The position numbers were made by a program, and so were the translations under genes. The notes below the pieces were generated by a model. It did not search any database and was not told the origin of the DNA. It saw nothing but the letters and a program-made list of their open reading frames with translations. Positions 5,377-11,223 of a stretch of DNA of 54,535 nucleotides are shown in pieces. Within the stretch, counting starts at the first letter, position 1. The number at the start of each line of letters is the position of its first letter. The DNA is taken from positions 1 through 54,535 of the IMG/VR virus record IMGVR_UViG_3300043430_000111. The stretch is one strand, 5' to 3'. Origin of the DNA: a virus. Taxonomy: Duplodnaviria > Caudoviricetes.

Positions 5377-5805
5377 ATGGACAACAGACTCATCAACCTT
5401 CGGGAGATCGTGCGACAGCGCGGTGGCGTGTCTCAACTGTCGCGGGACATGGGCTACAGCAACCCTTCGTTCCTGTCGCAAATGCTCGGGCCGAACCCAA
5501 CGCGGCTGGTGACGGAGAAGACGGCTCGCAAGTTCGAGAAGCTGCTAGGCATCCCTCTCGGCACGCTCGACCGCGAACCGGGTGAGGCGGCTCAGGCGCC
5601 GGTTGACGCAAGCGTGCAGCACAGCACCTCGGAGATGGTGGCGCACGTCATCCGTGTGGTCGGCAGAGCGTGCGACGAAGAATCTGCCCAGCCGAACACG
5701 GAGAAGTTCGCCAACGCGGTGGCACTGGCTTACCTAGATGCCGCGGAGCACGGCGGGCAGGTTCGGGAGGATCACGTCAAGCAGTTGGTGCGTCTGCTCA
5801 AGTGA
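5377..5805 (+). CDS. CI-like HTH repressor (no S24 peptidase domain evident)
   Basis: GGVSQLSRDMGYSNPSFLSQML...EKTARKFEKLLG; GGAG RBS before 5377. Confidence 0.75.
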   Translation: MDNRLINLREIVRQRGGVSQLSRDMGYSNPSFLSQMLGPNPTRLVTEKTARKFEKLLGIPLGTLDREPGEAAQAPVDASVQHSTSEMVAHVIRVVGRACDEESAQPNTEKFANAVALAYLDAAEHGGQVREDHVKQLVRLLK

Positions 5806-6088
5806 GTCGGCGGATGGCGTTTTCACACTGCCCTACCGGGTACGCACCCACTCGGTCTTGAACGATGGCACCGATACGCTCACATTCGCGCGCTGCGGCA
5901 TCGACACCGGCCTGCCAGCCCCACCACGCCGCGTTGAACATCTGCACACCATAGTTGCCGTTCTCGTCTTTCCAGAACAGAGCATCGGGGGTGCCATCTC
6001 CTTCGGCGTTGTGGTCTGTTTTGCCAGCGGCTTTTCGCTGCAAATAGTGCTCGTATGCGGCCTTCTCGAAGGCTTGTCGGTTGCTCAT
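5798..6088 (-). CDS. Hypothetical phage protein
   Basis: RQAFE...AWWGWQA motif typical of small phage early proteins; coupled to upstream gene. Confidence 0.75.
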   Translation of the reverse strand: MSNRQAFEKAAYEHYLQRKAAGKTDHNAEGDGTPDALFWKDENGNYGVQMFNAAWWGWQAGVDAAARECERIGAIVQDRVGAYPVGQCENAIRRLT

Positions 6089-6321
6089 ATCTTCTCGCTT
6101 TCAACCTTGAGGATCACGCTTTTTGCTGTCGTGTAAGCCTCCCTCGCCCGATCTAATTTTGTCTCGACGTAGTTGCGACCGTAAGAGCCGGCCTGCTTGA
6201 AGTATTCAGCCTCCACCATTTGGAGTGCCATCTTCAATGCGACAAGCAACTCGTCACGTTGTTGCTGCAACCTAGCGATCCGGCTGCTTTGCTGCTGCGT
6301 GGTTGACATCGGTCTGATCAT
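6085..6321 (-). CDS. Hypothetical protein
   Basis: ATGA overlaps with neighbours; QRDELL coiled-coil motif. Confidence 0.7.
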   Translation of the reverse strand: MIRPMSTTQQQSSRIARLQQQRDELLVALKMALQMVEAEYFKQAGSYGRNYVETKLDRAREAYTTAKSVILKVESEKI

Positions 6322-6524
6322 TGGACCTCCTGCGGGTCAAATATCGGCATGGGGTGGTAGTGGGTAAAGAACCCGCTGCTGTCCACAGTGCCGATGGATG
6401 CGCTCTTGGCTTCGCGGTTGATGAGGAAGCACTTCACCCCTCGCGGGGTATCTGAGGTGATCGGCTTCCAGTACGTCTTTGGGTCAACCAAAGCCGTGTG
6501 CGTTGAGTCTAGTTTTTCAGTCAT
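6318..6524 (-). CDS. Hypothetical protein (W-PI--TP-G..THY-P-P type)
   Basis: Coupled ORF with a DUF551-like phage motif. Confidence 0.7.
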   Translation of the reverse strand: MTEKLDSTHTALVDPKTYWKPITSDTPRGVKCFLINREAKSASIGTVDSSGFFTHYHPMPIFDPQEVQ

Positions 6525-6649
6525 GACTGGTTGGGTGTGTAAGGGTGGTCAGGTTCTGGTTGCGGGTATTCTTCCGGCGCATCCAGTTCGTCGTCGCGGT
6601 CGTCTTGCCAGCGGCGGCTCCATGCCGCTTTTGTGTCGGGCTGGCTCAT
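6521..6649 (-). CDS. 42-aa hypothetical protein (not in the ORF track)
   Basis: MSQPDTKAAW...YTPNQS*, with ATGA overlaps on both sides. Confidence 0.6.
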   Translation of the reverse strand: MSQPDTKAAWSRRWQDDRDDELDAPEEYPQPEPDHPYTPNQS

Positions 6650-6804
6650 GGCTTCGGCTCCTTCAGAATCTGCGCTTCCAGCCACGTCACCATGCTGCGC
6701 AGATCGTCATGCAGGTAATCGGGGAGTCGGTTTCCGCTGGAAAGGCCCCACGACTCAAGCGCACTCAGCAGGCGCATCTGGGCGAGTATGTATTTTTTGT
6801 CCAT
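6646..6804 (-). CDS. Hypothetical protein
   Basis: MDKKYIL... ORF coupled to the downstream gene. Confidence 0.65.
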   Translation of the reverse strand: MDKKYILAQMRLLSALESWGLSSGNRLPDYLHDDLRSMVTWLEAQILKEPKP

Positions 6805-6856
6805 GTGTGCTTTCTGTGTGGATGGCCCAGTGAGGGCCATCGTTATCAGGCGGTTT

Positions 6857-6879
6857 GTGACGCCTAATAACGGTTAGGC
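6857..6879 (+). mobile_element. Minimal R-box hairpin / cassette insertion point (attI- or attG-like)
   Basis: GCCTAAT-AACG-GTTAGGC; the GTTRRRY core at 6873-6879 starts cassette 1. Confidence 0.65.
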
Positions 6880-7179
6880 CCTAACATCCCTGCGCACTGC
6901 GGCACGCATCTGTGCCGCGCCATCGGCAATCGTCACCTCACCAAGGCAGTGAGACAGCGCGCCCGTCAGACCGCTTTGCATGGGCATCGTGAGCATTGCC
7001 ACGCGGGCCAGCAGCTCAGGCAGCGGCACTTCAAAGCCGTCGCCAAGATCAACGATGGATTCACAGGCCTGCTGCGACATCTCGAAGTAGGCGTCATCGT
7101 CACTGCGGATGTGCTCGGGGTACAGCAGGCGCAGCAACTCGTGCATTTCCAGATCGTCAAGTGGGTGCGGTTTCTTCAT
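6874..7179 (-). CDS. Cassette 1 hypothetical protein
   Basis: 101 aa; GAGAGGA RBS; TAA stop inside the GTTAGGC core. Confidence 0.85.
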   Translation of the reverse strand: MKKPHPLDDLEMHELLRLLYPEHIRSDDDAYFEMSQQACESIVDLGDGFEVPLPELLARVAMLTMPMQSGLTGALSHCLGEVTIADGAAQMRAAVRRDVRA

Positions 7180-7208
7180 GTTGGTCCTCTCGTCGTTGTG
7201 GCTGCATG

Positions 7209-7262
7209 GCCTAACCGTTCGCTCAAGCGGACGCAGAGCGCCGCTTAGCTGTCTGGTTAGGC
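7209..7262 (+). mobile_element. attC site 1
   Basis: GCCTAAC-CGTTC-GCT(C)AAGCGG(A)CGC-AGA-GCGCCGCTTAGC-TGTCTG-GTTAGGC: R''/L''/L'/R' boxes with two extrahelical bases. Confidence 0.92.
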
Positions 7263-7631
7263 CCCAAACGCATCGCGTCGCATCTCTTCATGCCACTCGG
7301 CCCGCCGATCGTCTTGACGGAGCGATGCCGCGTCGGGCTCGTGCAACTCGGGGGGTTGAAGTTGTGCGCTAGACCATTCTTCGGCGTCAAAGTCGGCCAG
7401 TTCTTCGGCGTGTTCTTCGGCGCCATGCGGCCACTCGATGACTTGCGCTTTGCATTGGTCGACGGTCACCGCCCACTGAGACAATTTCTCGGGGTTTTTG
7501 TCGAAGAACCCCTGCATGTCCTTGTTGTGGCGCGCCGCCATGTGTTCGGCCATGGCGCGGCTTGGTGCAGCGTGAAGATCATCAGGACCGGGGATGCGAA
7601 TGCACCAGAGTCCTTCTGTTGTTTGGTTCAT
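7257..7631 (-). CDS. Cassette 2 hypothetical protein
   Basis: 124 aa; GAGAGGA RBS; TAA stop inside the R' box of attC1. Confidence 0.85.
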   Translation of the reverse strand: MNQTTEGLWCIRIPGPDDLHAAPSRAMAEHMAARHNKDMQGFFDKNPEKLSQWAVTVDQCKAQVIEWPHGAEEHAEELADFDAEEWSSAQLQPPELHEPDAASLRQDDRRAEWHEEMRRDAFGA

Positions 7632-7660
7632 GTCGTTCCTCTCGTCGTTGTGGCCACCAG

Positions 7661-7717
7661 GCCTAACCGGGCGCTCAAGCGGACGCCTTCGGCGCGCGCT
7701 TAGCTGTCTGGTTAGGC
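7661..7717 (+). mobile_element. attC site 2
   Basis: GCCTAAC-CGGGC-GCTCAAGCGGACGCC-TTC-GGCGCGCGCTTAGC-TGTCTG-GTTAGGC. Confidence 0.9.
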
Positions 7718-7975
7718 GTCACTTGGCTTGCCGCCGCATCGCTCACTCATGCAGTACGTCAAGCGGCCTAGTTCCGTCAAGCCGTAGCCTTCCACGGTGC
7801 AGGGCAACGGTCCATTCATGCGTTCGGACACCTTGCGCAACAGACCATCAGCTACCAACGCATCGGCGCGCTTCTTGGCCTTGGTCTGCATCATGTATAG
7901 CGGGCTCTTGTTCATGGCCGCTTCAACTTCCGCCGAAAACGCCCGTTCAAGAAGGTCAAGGTCTTTGCTGTTCAT
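7712..7975 (-). CDS. Cassette 3 protein, possible winged-helix
   Basis: 87 aa; ADALVADGLL...YGLTELGR resembles a wHTH wing; GAGG RBS; stop in the R' box of attC2. Confidence 0.8.
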   Translation of the reverse strand: MNSKDLDLLERAFSAEVEAAMNKSPLYMMQTKAKKRADALVADGLLRKVSERMNGPLPCTVEGYGLTELGRLTYCMSERCGGKPSDA

Positions 7976-8002
7976 CGGTTTCCTCTTCGTTCATCACGTA
8001 AC

Positions 8003-8057
8003 GCCTAACCGCCAGTTCAACCGGACGCCAAGGCGCCGGTTAACTTATTGGTTAGGC
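8003..8057 (+). mobile_element. attC site 3
   Basis: GCCTAAC-CGCCA-GTT(C)AACCGG(A)CGCC-AA-GGCGCCGGTTAAC-TTATTG-GTTAGGC; compensatory changes relative to attC1. Confidence 0.92.
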
Positions 8058-8330
8058 CTCAGGGTCCGTGGCGGGGTTGCTGAAGAAACCGTCATCGCGC
8101 GGGGTCTGGCCCTCCGGCATGATCTTTGTGGGAAAGCCTGCTGCCTGGCACTCAGCGGCCTCATCAAGCGCGTCTTGCGGCGGTTTGGCTGGACATAGAT
8201 GCGCCGAGTTCATTTCCCAGTCGGTGCCCAGTTCCTCGATACCGCAATTGCTGTCAATCCACACCACGAACAGCAAAGGCCTTTCCGGCCGTTTGGTAGT
8301 CGTCGGTTGCTTCTCAATGACGTGGTTCAT
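8052..8330 (-). CDS. Cassette 4 hypothetical protein
   Basis: 92 aa; AGGAG RBS; stop in the R' box of attC3. Confidence 0.8.
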   Translation of the reverse strand: MNHVIEKQPTTTKRPERPLLFVVWIDSNCGIEELGTDWEMNSAHLCPAKPPQDALDEAAECQAAGFPTKIMPEGQTPRDDGFFSNPATDPEA

Positions 8331-8430
8331 CTGGCTCCTATCCGGCCCACTCCGTGAGCCTCCGAATCAAACGCTCGGCCTGGCGGCCCAGCTTGGTGTG
8401 GTGCCCACGGTGGGCGGTGTCGGTGGCATG

Positions 8431-8484
8431 GCCTAACCGGGCGCTCAAGCGGACGCAGAGCGCCGCTTAGCTGTCTGGTTAGGC
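8431..8484 (+). mobile_element. attC site 4
   Basis: Identical to attC1 except the 5-bp spacer (CGGGC). Confidence 0.92.
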
Positions 8485-8485
8485 G

Positions 8486-9454
8486 TTACTTGGCTGCGAG
8501 CATGGCGGCGCGGCAGGCGTTCCACCCCTCTGCATAACCTGCGGCCTGACCGGAACAGTAGTCGTACTCTGTGCCATCTTCAACGGGTGAGGCAATAGCG
8601 TCCGGCACGCTCGGCGCTGGGCGGGTGTATAGCTTTGTTCCTGGGGTCAGCAAGAGCCCTGTTTCAATGATGAACCCATCCCTGTCAACATAAGCCACCG
8701 ACGCACCCGTGGCGGGCTGCTGGGCCTCTGCCTGCGTGGCCTGGGCTGGCTGCGGGGTGGTGTAAATCTTGGTGCCAACAGGGGCTTCGTCTGCTCTGAA
8801 GCAGGCCATCGTGAAGCCCGATGTTCCCGGCATCGTGCCTACTTCACCAATAGGCTCACCCTGCACCTGAGAGCAGGCTTGCAGGGCGAAGGCGCACATT
8901 TGGTCGGCAGTGAAGCCTCGCAATGCTTGCGTACCCACAACGATTACGCCTTCAGGCTCTGGCAGCGGCGGCAGTTGGTTGGTGTCTTTCATCTCTCGCA
9001 TCTGGCGTGCAGAGAATGCAGGCTGATTGCTCTTGTCGGTCTTGATGTCGTGGTGGGCTTCTGCTGCCCATACGCCGCGCATGAATGTGCCTCGGTATCC
9101 ATACGACTTGCTCTGCTTCAGGTAGGCTTCACGGCGCTCATCATCTGTCATCGGCACCCGCTCAGGGCGCAGGGCAAGGATGGCGCGGGCGTAAGCACGG
9201 TGCGCCTGAAGCATTACGCCAATTTGTTCACCCCACTGCTCTACAGTTACGGCATCAATATCAGCATCCGTCACCCCTGCCCATTGTGGAGCGGCTGTGA
9301 GTGACAAAGATGCTTGTGAATCAGATTCGGCGTTCTGTGCTCCACAAACCAGCATGGCCTCCCGCATCTGGCGTGCAGAGAATGCAGGCTGATTGCTTAT
9401 ATCCGTCTTGATGTAGCCAAGATCAGGCTCAGGCAATTGGTTGGTGTCGGTCAT
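8486..9454 (-). CDS. Mosaic hypothetical phage protein with internal repeats
   Basis: NQPAFSARQMRE x2, DTNQLP x2, GTK(I/L)YT x2, C-terminal GWNACRAAML motif. Confidence 0.8.
   Translation of the reverse strand: MTDTNQLPEPDLGYIKTDISNQPAFSARQMREAMLVCGAQNAESDSQASLSLTAAPQWAGVTDADIDAVTVEQWGEQIGVMLQAHRAYARAILALRPERVPMTDDERREAYLKQSKSYGYRGTFMRGVWAAEAHHDIKTDKSNQPAFSARQMREMKDTNQLPPLPEPEGVIVVGTQALRGFTADQMCAFALQACSQVQGEPIGEVGTMPGTSGFTMACFRADEAPVGTKIYTTPQPAQATQAEAQQPATGASVAYVDRDGFIIETGLLLTPGTKLYTRPAPSVPDAIASPVEDGTEYDYCSGQAAGYAEGWNACRAAMLAAK
8997..9397. repeat. 35-bp exact direct repeat
   Basis: CGCATCTGGCGTGCAGAGAATGCAGGCTGATTGCT at 8997-9031 and 9363-9397. Confidence 0.9.
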
Positions 9455-9455
9455 G

Positions 9456-9653
9456 TCAAGCTCCGTTTGTTAAGTGAATGCCCTGCGGCAATGCCCTGCC
9501 GCGTTTGAGCTTTCCGTCGTCCAGGCGGGAAACCTCACCGTTGAAGGTGCTGAACCTGTGCAGGTTGGCGCACTCGTAGCGGCGGTACGTGCCCGCCTTG
9601 CGCTTGCGTGTCTCCAGCACCTCGACCCAGGCGTTGCACTTCGGGCAGTTCAT
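9456..9653 (-). CDS. Zinc-ribbon protein (NrdR N-terminal-like)
   Basis: MNCPKC...VLETR...RRYECANLHRFST. Confidence 0.8.
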   Translation of the reverse strand: MNCPKCNAWVEVLETRKRKAGTYRRYECANLHRFSTFNGEVSRLDDGKLKRGRALPQGIHLTNGA

Positions 9654-9895
9654 TGAATACTCCCGACCCACGCCCACAGCCACCCTCGGCCACCTCGCCC
9701 CGTGGGCTCGCGGGTGCCAACGATGCGAACGAGCTTGTGGTTCGACAGCGAGCGCAAGATGCGACCAACGCTGTAGCGGTGCGCGTCGGTGACCGGCAGA
9801 CCGAGATCGGTGCACAACTCAACGATGGTGTGGGGGCCTGTCAGAAGCAGGGTGATGATCCGCGATACGCGGTCGGCGTAACGGTGTTGGCTCAT
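9650..9895 (-). CDS. Putative winged-helix protein
   Basis: GPHTIVELCTDLGL...VGRILRSL; coupled ORF. Confidence 0.65.
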   Translation of the reverse strand: MSQHRYADRVSRIITLLLTGPHTIVELCTDLGLPVTDAHRYSVGRILRSLSNHKLVRIVGTREPTGRGGRGWLWAWVGSIQ

Positions 9896-11223
9896 ACCGC
9901 AACCTCCATCTTCACGAACGGATGGTGGCGGTATCCCTTGATGTGGAAGTCGTCCAACTTGTAGCCGTCGATGTCGGTGTTATCGGTGAGGATCACCAAC
10001 TGGGCCTCGTCACGGATGATGTCGCGCCCCAGAACCTGCCGCATCTTCTCGACGTGGTTTGAGTAGAGGTGCGCGTCACCGATGTCCACCAGCAGGCGGC
10101 GCGGCTTGAGGTTTGCGGCACGGGCGTACAGGTGCGTGAGCAGTGCGTAGGCAGCTACGTTGAACGGCAGGCCAAGAGCCACGTCCGATGAGCGCATGAA
10201 TAGCTTGAGGTCAAGGTGCCCGTCGTTGGACACGTAGCACTGGTGTGTGTGATGACATGGGGGCAGCGCCATGCGATCAAGTTCGCCAACATTCCATGAC
10301 GTGACAATGTGTCGGCGGCCATGGGGGTTGGTGCGAAGACCCTCGATGAGCGTCTTCACTTGGTCGAACTCCTTGCGTAGCGGTGTGCGAGAAACAAACT
10401 CAAAGCCGTCTCGCCTCTTAGCATTCTTGTTGCCGGTCCACAGATCGGAGAAGTTCTTTGGCTCAATTCCATGTTCATCACAGAACTCGCTCACGTTCGT
10501 AAAGGCGAACCCTTCACCATTGCGGCGCACCACGTAGAGCCACTCAGCCTTGGCCGACGCATTCTCTTTGTCACTCACGAAGCAACAGGTCTCAGGTGCA
10601 TACCTGAACCCGTCCCCGAGAATGTCCTTGTCCAAGACCTTGCGATAACGTCCGAGTTCGAGGCAGTAACCGGGCAAGTTGCTAAGGTCTCCTGCAAAGG
10701 CTCGGAACTCAAGCCAGCGGTCACAAACATGAACGCCTCTGGCTCCGTAGCTCTTATAACTGATGTTCTTCGGGTCGTAGCAACGACCCATCATGCCTTC
10801 CCAGGTCTTGCCAAAGCGGCTCTCACCCTTTCCAGCACCGTTGCCAATTCCAAGATAGGTCGCCTCAACGCCATCGCGCAGACGGGGCTTGGGTTGCGGG
10901 ATGTTGTCCGGCCTTGCGCCCCATCGACGCCAGTTGAATCCATACACAGGGCCGAGGTTTCCATTCTCATCAGCCCAGGCATCCCACAGCTTGCTACCGC
11001 GCTCGTTCAGCCACTTGACGTTTGTCTGTCCACTCAGGAAGAACAGCATCTCCAGGAATGCCGTCAGCCACCGCGTCTCCTTGGCCGTCACCAGGGGGAA
11101 GCGTTCGCGCAGGTCGAACTCCAGGTTGGCACCGAAGACGGCGAGGGTGCCGACTCCGGTACGGTCGTCGCGCAGCTCACCTTCCGCCAAGATGCGGGCG
11201 ACGAGGTTAAGGTACTGTTTCAT
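9892..11223 (-). CDS. thyA: Thymidylate synthase with in-frame HNH-like insertion
   Basis: DRTGVGT, FPLVT, LGPVYG, RRHIV, MALPPCH, RSSDVALGLPFN, GDAHLY motifs. Confidence 0.95.
   Translation of the reverse strand: MKQYLNLVARILAEGELRDDRTGVGTLAVFGANLEFDLRERFPLVTAKETRWLTAFLEMLFFLSGQTNVKWLNERGSKLWDAWADENGNLGPVYGFNWRRWGARPDNIPQPKPRLRDGVEATYLGIGNGAGKGESRFGKTWEGMMGRCYDPKNISYKSYGARGVHVCDRWLEFRAFAGDLSNLPGYCLELGRYRKVLDKDILGDGFRYAPETCCFVSDKENASAKAEWLYVVRRNGEGFAFTNVSEFCDEHGIEPKNFSDLWTGNKNAKRRDGFEFVSRTPLRKEFDQVKTLIEGLRTNPHGRRHIVTSWNVGELDRMALPPCHHTHQCYVSNDGHLDLKLFMRSSDVALGLPFNVAAYALLTHLYARAANLKPRRLLVDIGDAHLYSNHVEKMRQVLGRDIIRDEAQLVILTDNTDIDGYKLDDFHIKGYRHHPFVKMEVAV
10375..10914 (-). mobile_element. About 180-aa homing-endonuclease-like insertion in thyA
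   Basis: WEGMMGRCY...YGARGVHVCDRWLEF...LDKD...YAPETCCFV lies between YGFNWRRW and DQ, which are normally about 10 aa apart; boundaries approximate. Confidence 0.75.

Follow-up and report, generated by a model that had tools for sequence, protein, structure and literature searches.

Integron cassettes are already known in phages, and their route of entry into a phage genome that encodes no integron integrase is an open question. Phage CALINs, which contain several attCs and no IntI, have been reported, with five of six phage attCs said to recombine with attI1 under IntI1, and inverted GTTRRRY motifs are reported at the boundaries of phage attC clusters in the same study (Qi et al., 2023; PMC9892861). 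The consulted sections of that paper describe no conserved acceptor common to phages, no mapping of a boundary crossover and no reversed gene orientation, and a literature search over parts of the published record returned no description of a conserved acceptor site common to phages. The phage genome considered here raises the question in a concrete form, since a 23-nt site with two inverted integron-type boxes stands at the head of its array of four cassettes. Is this site a place at which cassettes are joined to the phage, is it what is left of an attC, or does it serve some other function?

This genome, called the window below (the whole 54,535-bp stretch of DNA that was analysed), is a complete-looking virus record with a CheckV completeness of 100. 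It contains structural and packaging genes (large terminase, portal, head protease, major head protein, tape measure and tail proteins) as well as replication genes (DNA polymerase, primase, exonuclease, Gp2.5-like single-strand-binding protein and helicase), and the P4-type tyrosine integrase that it encodes shows the phage to be temperate. With four attCs, no IntI and these phage structural and replication genes, the window belongs among the CALIN-bearing phage genomes. The 23-nt site, or mini-site, lies within a block of small genes that are all encoded on the minus strand, from ~12.5 kb down to 5.8 kb (Table 1). The P4-type integrase gene is 15 kb away from it, and the encoded protein has a local match of only 27.7 bits to bacterial IntI. 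A blastn search of positions 5800-9500 against a phage collection returned only matches of 33-39 nt, in four Klebsiella phage records, and was uninformative. Elsewhere in the window, a thymidylate synthase gene (9892-11223, minus strand) is interrupted in frame, with its Pfam match split into two stretches and residues ~130-267 matching HNH endonuclease families; the insert may be a homing-endonuclease domain or an intein-like element.

Table 1. Positions in the window of the mini-site, the cassettes and neighbouring features
Feature	Position	Strand	Details
64-aa gene	6646..6840	-	first gene transcribed after the array; likelier start ATG at 6805
Conserved 8-bp hairpin	6821..6841		between mini-site and start codon of the next gene; GATGGCCC-AGTGA-GGGCCATC
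Conserved left half, constant phage-side part	6835..6872	+	ends ...GACGCCTAATAACG, then the putative crossover G at 6873
Mini-site	6857..6879	+	GTGACGCCTAAT-AACG-GTTAGGC
CCTA, proposed counterpart of the attI L box	6863..6866	+	-11..-8 from the putative crossover G
Cassette 1	6874..7256	+	ORF 6874-7179 (-), 101 aa; attC-a 7209-7262
Cassette 2	7257..7711	+	ORF 7257-7631 (-), 124 aa; attC-b 7661-7717
Cassette 3	7712..8051	+	ORF 7712-7975 (-), 87 aa, matches phrog_2239; attC-c 8003-8057
Cassette 4	8052..8478	+	ORF 8052-8330 (-), 92 aa; attC-d 8431-8484
Sequence right of the last attC	8479..8510	+	TTAGGCGTTACTTGGCTGC...; 3' end of 322-aa ORF 8486-9454 (-)
P4-type phage integrase	22072..23460	-	phrog_1, E = 6e-68; Pfam Arm-DNA-bind_3, Phage_int_M, Phage_integrase

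The cassette array and the 23-nt mini-site

Four full attC sites lie 3' of the mini-site on the plus strand, each 54-57 nt long and each consisting of GCCTAAC...GTTAGGC around an imperfect inner stem. By a covariance model built from seven attCs, these sites score 77.7-84.6 bits on the plus strand and 23.7-28.4 bits on the minus strand. Their minus strands fold at -16.7 to -20.5 kcal/mol (z -1.8 to -4.2), and every one has two bulged bases, G and T, on the minus-strand 3' arm, which is the pattern of an attC bottom strand. All four copies of GCCTAAC and all five copies of GTTAGGC in the 54.5-kb window fall inside the 1.6-kb array, with ~3.5 of each expected window-wide from composition.

The four cassette proteins gave no Pfam match, neither they nor the neighbouring proteins gave an NCBIfam match, and a tblastn search with the four cassette proteins and the 322-aa protein encoded to the right of the last attC returned self-matches only among all loci compared; a search for relatives with the 322-aa protein found none. 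Within the ORF for this last protein a stretch of ~45 nt occurs as a direct repeat (near 8985-9030 and 9355-9410). The ORF has only its last 33 nt in common with cassette starts of other phages, and it may be a fusion of former cassettes from which the attC was lost. Cassettes 1 and 2 encode unrelated proteins and have a common 28-nt leader between attC and start codon (7175-7202 and 7627-7654), which reads GCCACAACGACGAGAGGA...ATG as its reverse complement, and the attC seems to be accompanied in its movements by a conserved module for translation initiation.

The mini-site itself contains an R''-like left box, GCCTAAT (6862-6868), the spacer AACG and an R' box, GTTAGGC (6873-6879); the R' box is perfect and the left box ends in AAT instead of AAC. 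The two boxes are 4 nt apart, the site has no L'' or L' box, and it falls short of the ~55-nt length of an attC. Its scores in the attC covariance model, 15.7 bits on the plus strand and 16.1 bits on the minus strand, are those of R boxes without L boxes, so that both the letters and the model agree with the initial annotation, which had described the array as starting with an R-box-only site. As a folded structure the mini-site is weak, with a 7-pair stem at -4.4 kcal/mol (z = -0.73), and shuffled sequences folded as well in 43 of 200 cases and, in a second test, in 26 of 500. The case for regarding it as more than a chance arrangement is therefore one of context and conservation, not of folding energy.

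Conservation of the left half and junctions at G|TT

The left half of the mini-site is common to eight phage or metagenome records (the window, G001, G002, G003, L012, L013, L108 and L109), in which it forms part of a conserved module. Relative to the window, identity is 95.6% over 45 nt in L013, 92% over 78 nt in G002 and G003, and 91-94% over 128-237 nt in G001 and L012; the flanking genes differ, and the remainder of these eight genomes has almost no DNA in common and few distant proteins. An exact 20-mer of the site occurs in three viral contigs and two metagenome contigs, variant forms are found in L109 and L108, and none of 185,579 species genomes contains the 20-mer, which leaves this sequence without a known bacterial attI counterpart. 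A 24-mer from the left part of the module is confined, among viral contigs, to five, and the mini-site accompanies it in all five; a full attC at this place, by which the initial annotation would have recognized a simple deletion, is found in none of them.

The position of the site relative to the array is also constant. In all seven records that contain both the module and an array (the window, G001, G002, G003, L012, L108 and L109), the mini-site is on the attC top strand and 5' of the first attC, and among 45 sources scanned there was no window-type site inside an array or at the 3' end of one. Because all window-type copies are homologous, this polarity could stem from one inherited event.

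Several properties of the module would fit a mosaic boundary. It spans the 5' untranslated region and the start codon of the next gene, and homologues of the 64-aa gene found there are 91% identical in L012, 89% in L109 and 56% in L108, with only the N-terminus present in G001. The left homology ends at different points among the phages (45, 78, 118-128 and 237 nt), as is typical of mosaic joints. In three other runs (X5, X9 and X13, which are contig sets from wastewater, groundwater and activated sludge), window positions 6689-6942 are covered far deeper than the flanking genes, which suggests a wide range of module-carrying phages in those communities. These properties could be explained if the conserved 45-78 nt were a linker for the swapping of modules by homologous recombination, with the R' box belonging to the neighbouring array and no recombinase acting on the site, and it is the sequence on the right-hand side of the site that bears on this explanation.

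After G|TTAGGC, the eight records contain seven different sequences, one of them common to G002 and G003. Six of the seven are cassettes that end in a full attC, and the seventh, in L013, is without an attC. The first cassette of G001 is the fifth cassette of G003, where it stands behind a full attC, and the start of cassette 1 of the window is found behind the 3' ends of full attCs in runs X13 and X5, with the change in sequence at 6873 and 6872. The base that follows the 7-nt box complements the R'' flank of the first cassette's own attC in six of six arrays, and the left flank of the mini-site in only two of the six; in L108 the box is GTTAGAC, which matches the R'' sequence of its cassette, GTCTAAC. 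Taken together, the flank complementarity, the L108 box and the presence of cassette 1 behind full attCs place the crossover between G and TT (6873/6874). This is the footprint expected of strand exchange at that point, and it assigns the letters from 6874 onwards to the cassette, leaving no more than the left part to the phage. Homologous exchange does not create junctions of this kind, of which at least six between module and cassette must each have been made once, exactly at G|TT and with a flank complementary to the cassette's own attC, and we regard the linker explanation as distinctly improbable.

The right-hand partners also bear on the possibility that the mini-site is a collapsed attC, in which an attC at the edge of the array would have lost L''-loop-L' by slippage to leave an R''-4 nt-R' scar that recombines poorly or not at all. 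Two inverted R-type boxes only 4 nt apart are what such an event would leave, and the minus strand of the site begins GCCTAACCGTT, identical to the first 11 top-strand letters of attC-a and of two other attCs. Precedents are on record as well, since replication slippage is reported to delete folded attCs easily (bioRxiv 10.1101/2022.09.11.507474, discussion), and truncated attCs that keep little beyond R'' are described as a recognized class (PMC12901181, citing Partridge, 2009). However, an inert scar would leave a single frozen first cassette, and seven different partners are seen instead, six of them cassettes and one an array-less sequence. Collapse also sits poorly with the lack of a full attC in place of the site in the five module contigs, with the confinement of window-type sites to the 5' end of arrays, with a left box that ends in AAT rather than AAC, and with a CCTA that lies at the distance found in attI, not at the L' position of attCs, and has no YCTA counterpart in attC matches (see below). 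A collapsed attC is, in our assessment, an unlikely origin for this site.

The reading that we consider probable, jointly with the mechanism by host IntI that is outlined below, is that the 23-nt feature is a junction between a phage-borne attI-type half-site (...GACGCCTAATAACG-G) and the first six letters of a cassette (TTAGGC). Judged from the junctions compared here, the site has been used repeatedly. The earlier suggestion that it is a fixed boundary for the joining of cassettes, and acts as an acceptor, is backed at the level of sequence by the seven partners, the mapping of the crossover to G|TT and the lack of a full attC in relatives.

A further explanation for the conservation of the left half lies in the transcript. 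An alternative minus-strand hairpin that overlaps the left half is stronger than that of the mini-site, with an 11-pair stem between 6842-6852 and 6861-6871 of the window, so conservation could serve an RNA or DNA structure instead of a recombination site. If this structure were an element of the leftward transcript (a processing, stabilizing or terminator hairpin), the likeness to R boxes would be incidental, or would have attracted one attG-like off-target insertion. When folded, the 86-nt minus-strand segment 6800-6885 forms a pair of neighbouring hairpins (-34.3 kcal/mol, z = -4.5); in the stem of the longer one, a position that pairs as U-G on the minus strand would be an unpaired C/A on the plus strand. 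A terminator-like hairpin with two inverted GTTRRRY motifs is reported upstream of a phage attC cluster (PMC9892861, section 3.4). Yet a promoter and terminator scan found nothing at the mini-site and no T-run follows the hairpin. The consensus fold of six module sequences has 18 pairs and no compensatory changes, which gives a transcript element no support from covariation and by itself decides neither way. The conserved 8-bp hairpin is present in seven of the eight module-bearing records and absent from L013, which keeps the core of the site without the second hairpin. As a single off-target insertion cannot give seven different partners, an RNA element with no part in cassette joining appears very improbable.

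The predicted empty site and likeness to known attachment sites

The initial annotation had removed all four cassettes in silico and read the result as either an empty acceptor site or a collapsed attC, and the 6873-to-8479 join does form the predicted 12 pairs, at -9.0 kcal/mol, with none of 500 shuffles folding as well. The relatives do not bear out this 28-nt hairpin as the empty site, since the 20-mer to the right of attC-d (8478-8497) is found at five other places, four of them behind full attCs and one type behind the 3' half of an attC, and behind a mini-site at none of the five. In L100 and L109, 33 letters identical to the right-hand sequence of the window begin array-internal cassettes. 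The GTTAC that lengthens the hairpin to 12 pairs recurs in this way at the starts of internal cassettes, so it is cassette sequence and not the right half of a primary site. Of the prediction, the acceptor thus stands, with its seven partners and G|TT crossover, and the 12-bp empty hairpin does not. The 6873-to-8479 joint is not among the 15 joints listed, out of 39 in the runs, which, as the runs are contigs, is no evidence of its absence.

The only copy of the site without an array is that of L013 (5596-6996), a metagenome contig in which no attC is present in the 11 kb of sequence examined. It has other letters 3' of the site and forms 7 pairs at -4.7 kcal/mol; no more than seven positions pair in this copy and in the L108 variant, and the 20-mer to the right of the L013 site has no viral matches. 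Here the stop codon of the last leftward gene is inside the GTTAGGC box, and block X, which adjoins the site in G001-G003, is on the other side of that gene. As L013 comes from another phage, it shows that the site can stand alone but does not serve as an isogenic empty allele, and the records compared contain no isogenic pair of an occupied and an empty site. In L013 a P4-type integrase gene terminates ~50 nt (54 nt) short of the core. Action of a P4-type integrase on the site, or identity of the site with attP, was considered and rejected, given the distance of the integrase gene in the window, the G|TT rule and the presence of attCs of this family in bacterial integrons that encode IntI.

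A comparison with bacterial integrons provides the polarity of the locus. In two of these, intI is on the minus strand, a GTTAGG box lies ~220 nt beyond the intI start and the model places the first attC on the plus strand; by this layout the plus strand of the window is the canonical top strand and the mini-site occupies the position of attI. The left box also has an attI-like feature, the CCTA listed in Table 1. When YCTA was counted at -11..-8 of GTTAGG over the phage loci (five redundant loci omitted; background 0.26% per position), it was found at 11 of 75 top-strand boxes outside attC matches and at none of 48 inside them, with 1 of 46 and 0 of 65, respectively, on the other strand. Six of the 11 sites are window-type and the other five (L070, L072, L087, L105 and L110) are in unrelated contexts; among these non-homologous sites, those of L070, L087, L105 and L110 are 5' of the first attC and that of L072 is not. 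A clean single case is provided by L087, in which CCCTAAC-TGGG-GTTAGGC is followed by a DNA methylase gene and then a full attC. L111 has TCTA at -12..-9, and YCTA is missing near this position in 6 of 17 candidate left boundaries (L079, L082, L085, L089, L096 and L102).

Bacterial sites have similar letters at this distance. attI1 (plasmid locus L112) ends ...gtcgccctaaaacaaag|ttagcc, with CCTA at -12..-9, and four bacterial attI regions that adjoin IntI genes read ggggtctactt(t)(a/t)(g/a)(c/g)g|ttagg, with TCTA at -11..-8. A fifth reads tccatttaacg|ttaggc, so TCTA is found there in four of five regions, all of which were assigned as attI by their position next to intI and not by experiment; for G004 only the core was used, with low-complexity sequence and an IS coming after it. 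On the evidence of these letters, the site is a member of a loose family of short attI-type cores that head phage arrays, and it resembles a double-stranded attI-type core more than a folded mini-attC.

The likeness to the attI1 simple site includes the location at the top-strand 5' end of the array, the G|TT crossover within a GTTRRRY box and an imperfect inverted copy of the box at the left; the repeats of attI1 are named DR1 and DR2 in a figure legend (Qi et al., 2023; PMC9892861). A GTTAY motif is 32 nt from the crossover in the window and 33 nt from it in attI1. In the phage site the inverted left box, GCCTAAT, is present as a putative L box at a box spacing 1 nt below that of attI1, and compared with attI1 or a folded attC the two boxes stand 1-2 nt closer together. 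Unlike attI, the site has no intI gene or Pc promoter beside it, the phage operon that contains it is transcribed in its direction and not away from it, and its sequence is not homologous to that of any bacterial attI found.

Two other classes of short site offer comparisons. DeltaattI sites, of 14-18 nt, contain the last 8-12 nt of attI plus GTTRRRY and are reported to be active IntI1 substrates (PMC12901181). Like these and the truncated attCs of 'unusual' cassettes, the mini-site is very short and has no L'' or L' box; it differs from DeltaattI in that it belongs to phages, heads an array and has a conserved left half of its own. attG sites are reported to be duplex genome sites at which IntI inserts cassettes in trans outside the integron, with G-W-T at the cut; the description sets them apart from attI and attC and gives hotspots a CRGM motif at +6..+9 (bioRxiv 10.1101/2022.09.11.507474). 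The phage site is distinguished from attG by a full R box and an inverted left box, and by being conserved across phages and reused. In L013, GTT is present and positions +6..+9 are CAAA in place of CRGM.

Candidate enzyme, reversed cassettes and implications

Which enzyme could act at this site? IntI (TIGR02249) had no match in 10 of 10 viral records, three of which are 100% complete by CheckV; as the same search missed the P4-type integrase of the window, it excludes only IntI-type enzymes. The attC half-site motif was found in 48 stretches of species genomes, mostly from Burkholderiales and other betaproteobacteria, and in 45 viral stretches, and IntI was above its curated cut-off in five of the nine genomes searched. 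With no IntI in the viral records, and with the motif and IntI in bacterial genomes, a host IntI that acts in trans is the most economical enzyme, and we infer that it is the catalyst. This is made plausible by the reports that short DeltaattI remnants are active and that duplex attG sites are targets. The site would then act as duplex DNA, with the left box as a putative protein-binding box, and the comparison suggests that phages borrow a host enzyme to swap small genes in and out.

In the mechanism that we propose, the half-site would be the fixed top-strand 5' end of an array which the phage, lacking an integron integrase gene, has no means of servicing on its own. The IntI of the host, probably a betaproteobacterium with attCs of the same family, would bind the duplex site both at the R box GTTAGGC and at the inverted left box GCCTAAT with its CCTA at -11..-8. 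Cleavage would take place between G and TT, one strand would be exchanged with the folded bottom strand of the attC of an incoming cassette, and replication would resolve the product, as in recombination between attI and attC. The small hairpin would then be a side effect of having two boxes in inverted orientation and not the form in which the site works.

A second property of these arrays is the orientation of their genes. The four cassette ORFs of the window are on the minus strand and have ATG starts and strong ribosome-binding sites, and the alternative plus-strand ORFs are arginine-rich and look like antisense artefacts. Across the phage loci (window 6874-8478, L009, L010 and L071-L111), 24 of 34 cassettes have their gene on the strand opposite the attC top strand, one has it on the top strand and nine are unclear. 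In contrast, bacterial arrays with the same attC family have the gene on the top strand in 46 of 72 cassettes, opposite it in 12 and unclear in 14; all of these strand calls are heuristic, made from ORF length, ribosome-binding site, start codon and arginine content. In the reversed orientation each mobile unit is an attC followed by a gene, and the array is transcribed from its far end in the direction of the docking site. The cargo found in relatives includes an N6/N4 DNA methylase (L087, reverse strand 1487-2289) and an RNA ligase (L010, 12424-13056), which are plausible phage counter-defence functions.

From these observations we tentatively advance a wider proposal, which we hold to be possible rather than probable: that temperate phages of betaproteobacteria keep an attI-like docking site without an integrase, together with a mirror-image cassette pool in which each gene is preceded by an attC and recombination takes place through the coding strand. 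If so, host IntI would shuffle accessory genes of phages, such as those for DNA methylase and RNA ligase, and the reversed orientation would stop the host and phage pools from expressing each other's genes.

A reusable and conserved acceptor of the attI type would offer a concrete, testable route for the entry of cassettes into phage genomes, by the action in trans of host IntI on a site that the phage maintains. It would also widen the range of short sequences known to be accepted by integron integrases, beside attG and DeltaattI. Combined with the reversed orientation, it would point to a cassette pool that is owned by phages and run by bacterial recombination machinery, which is relevant to the way counter-defence genes are traded among phages and to gene flow between them and integrons.
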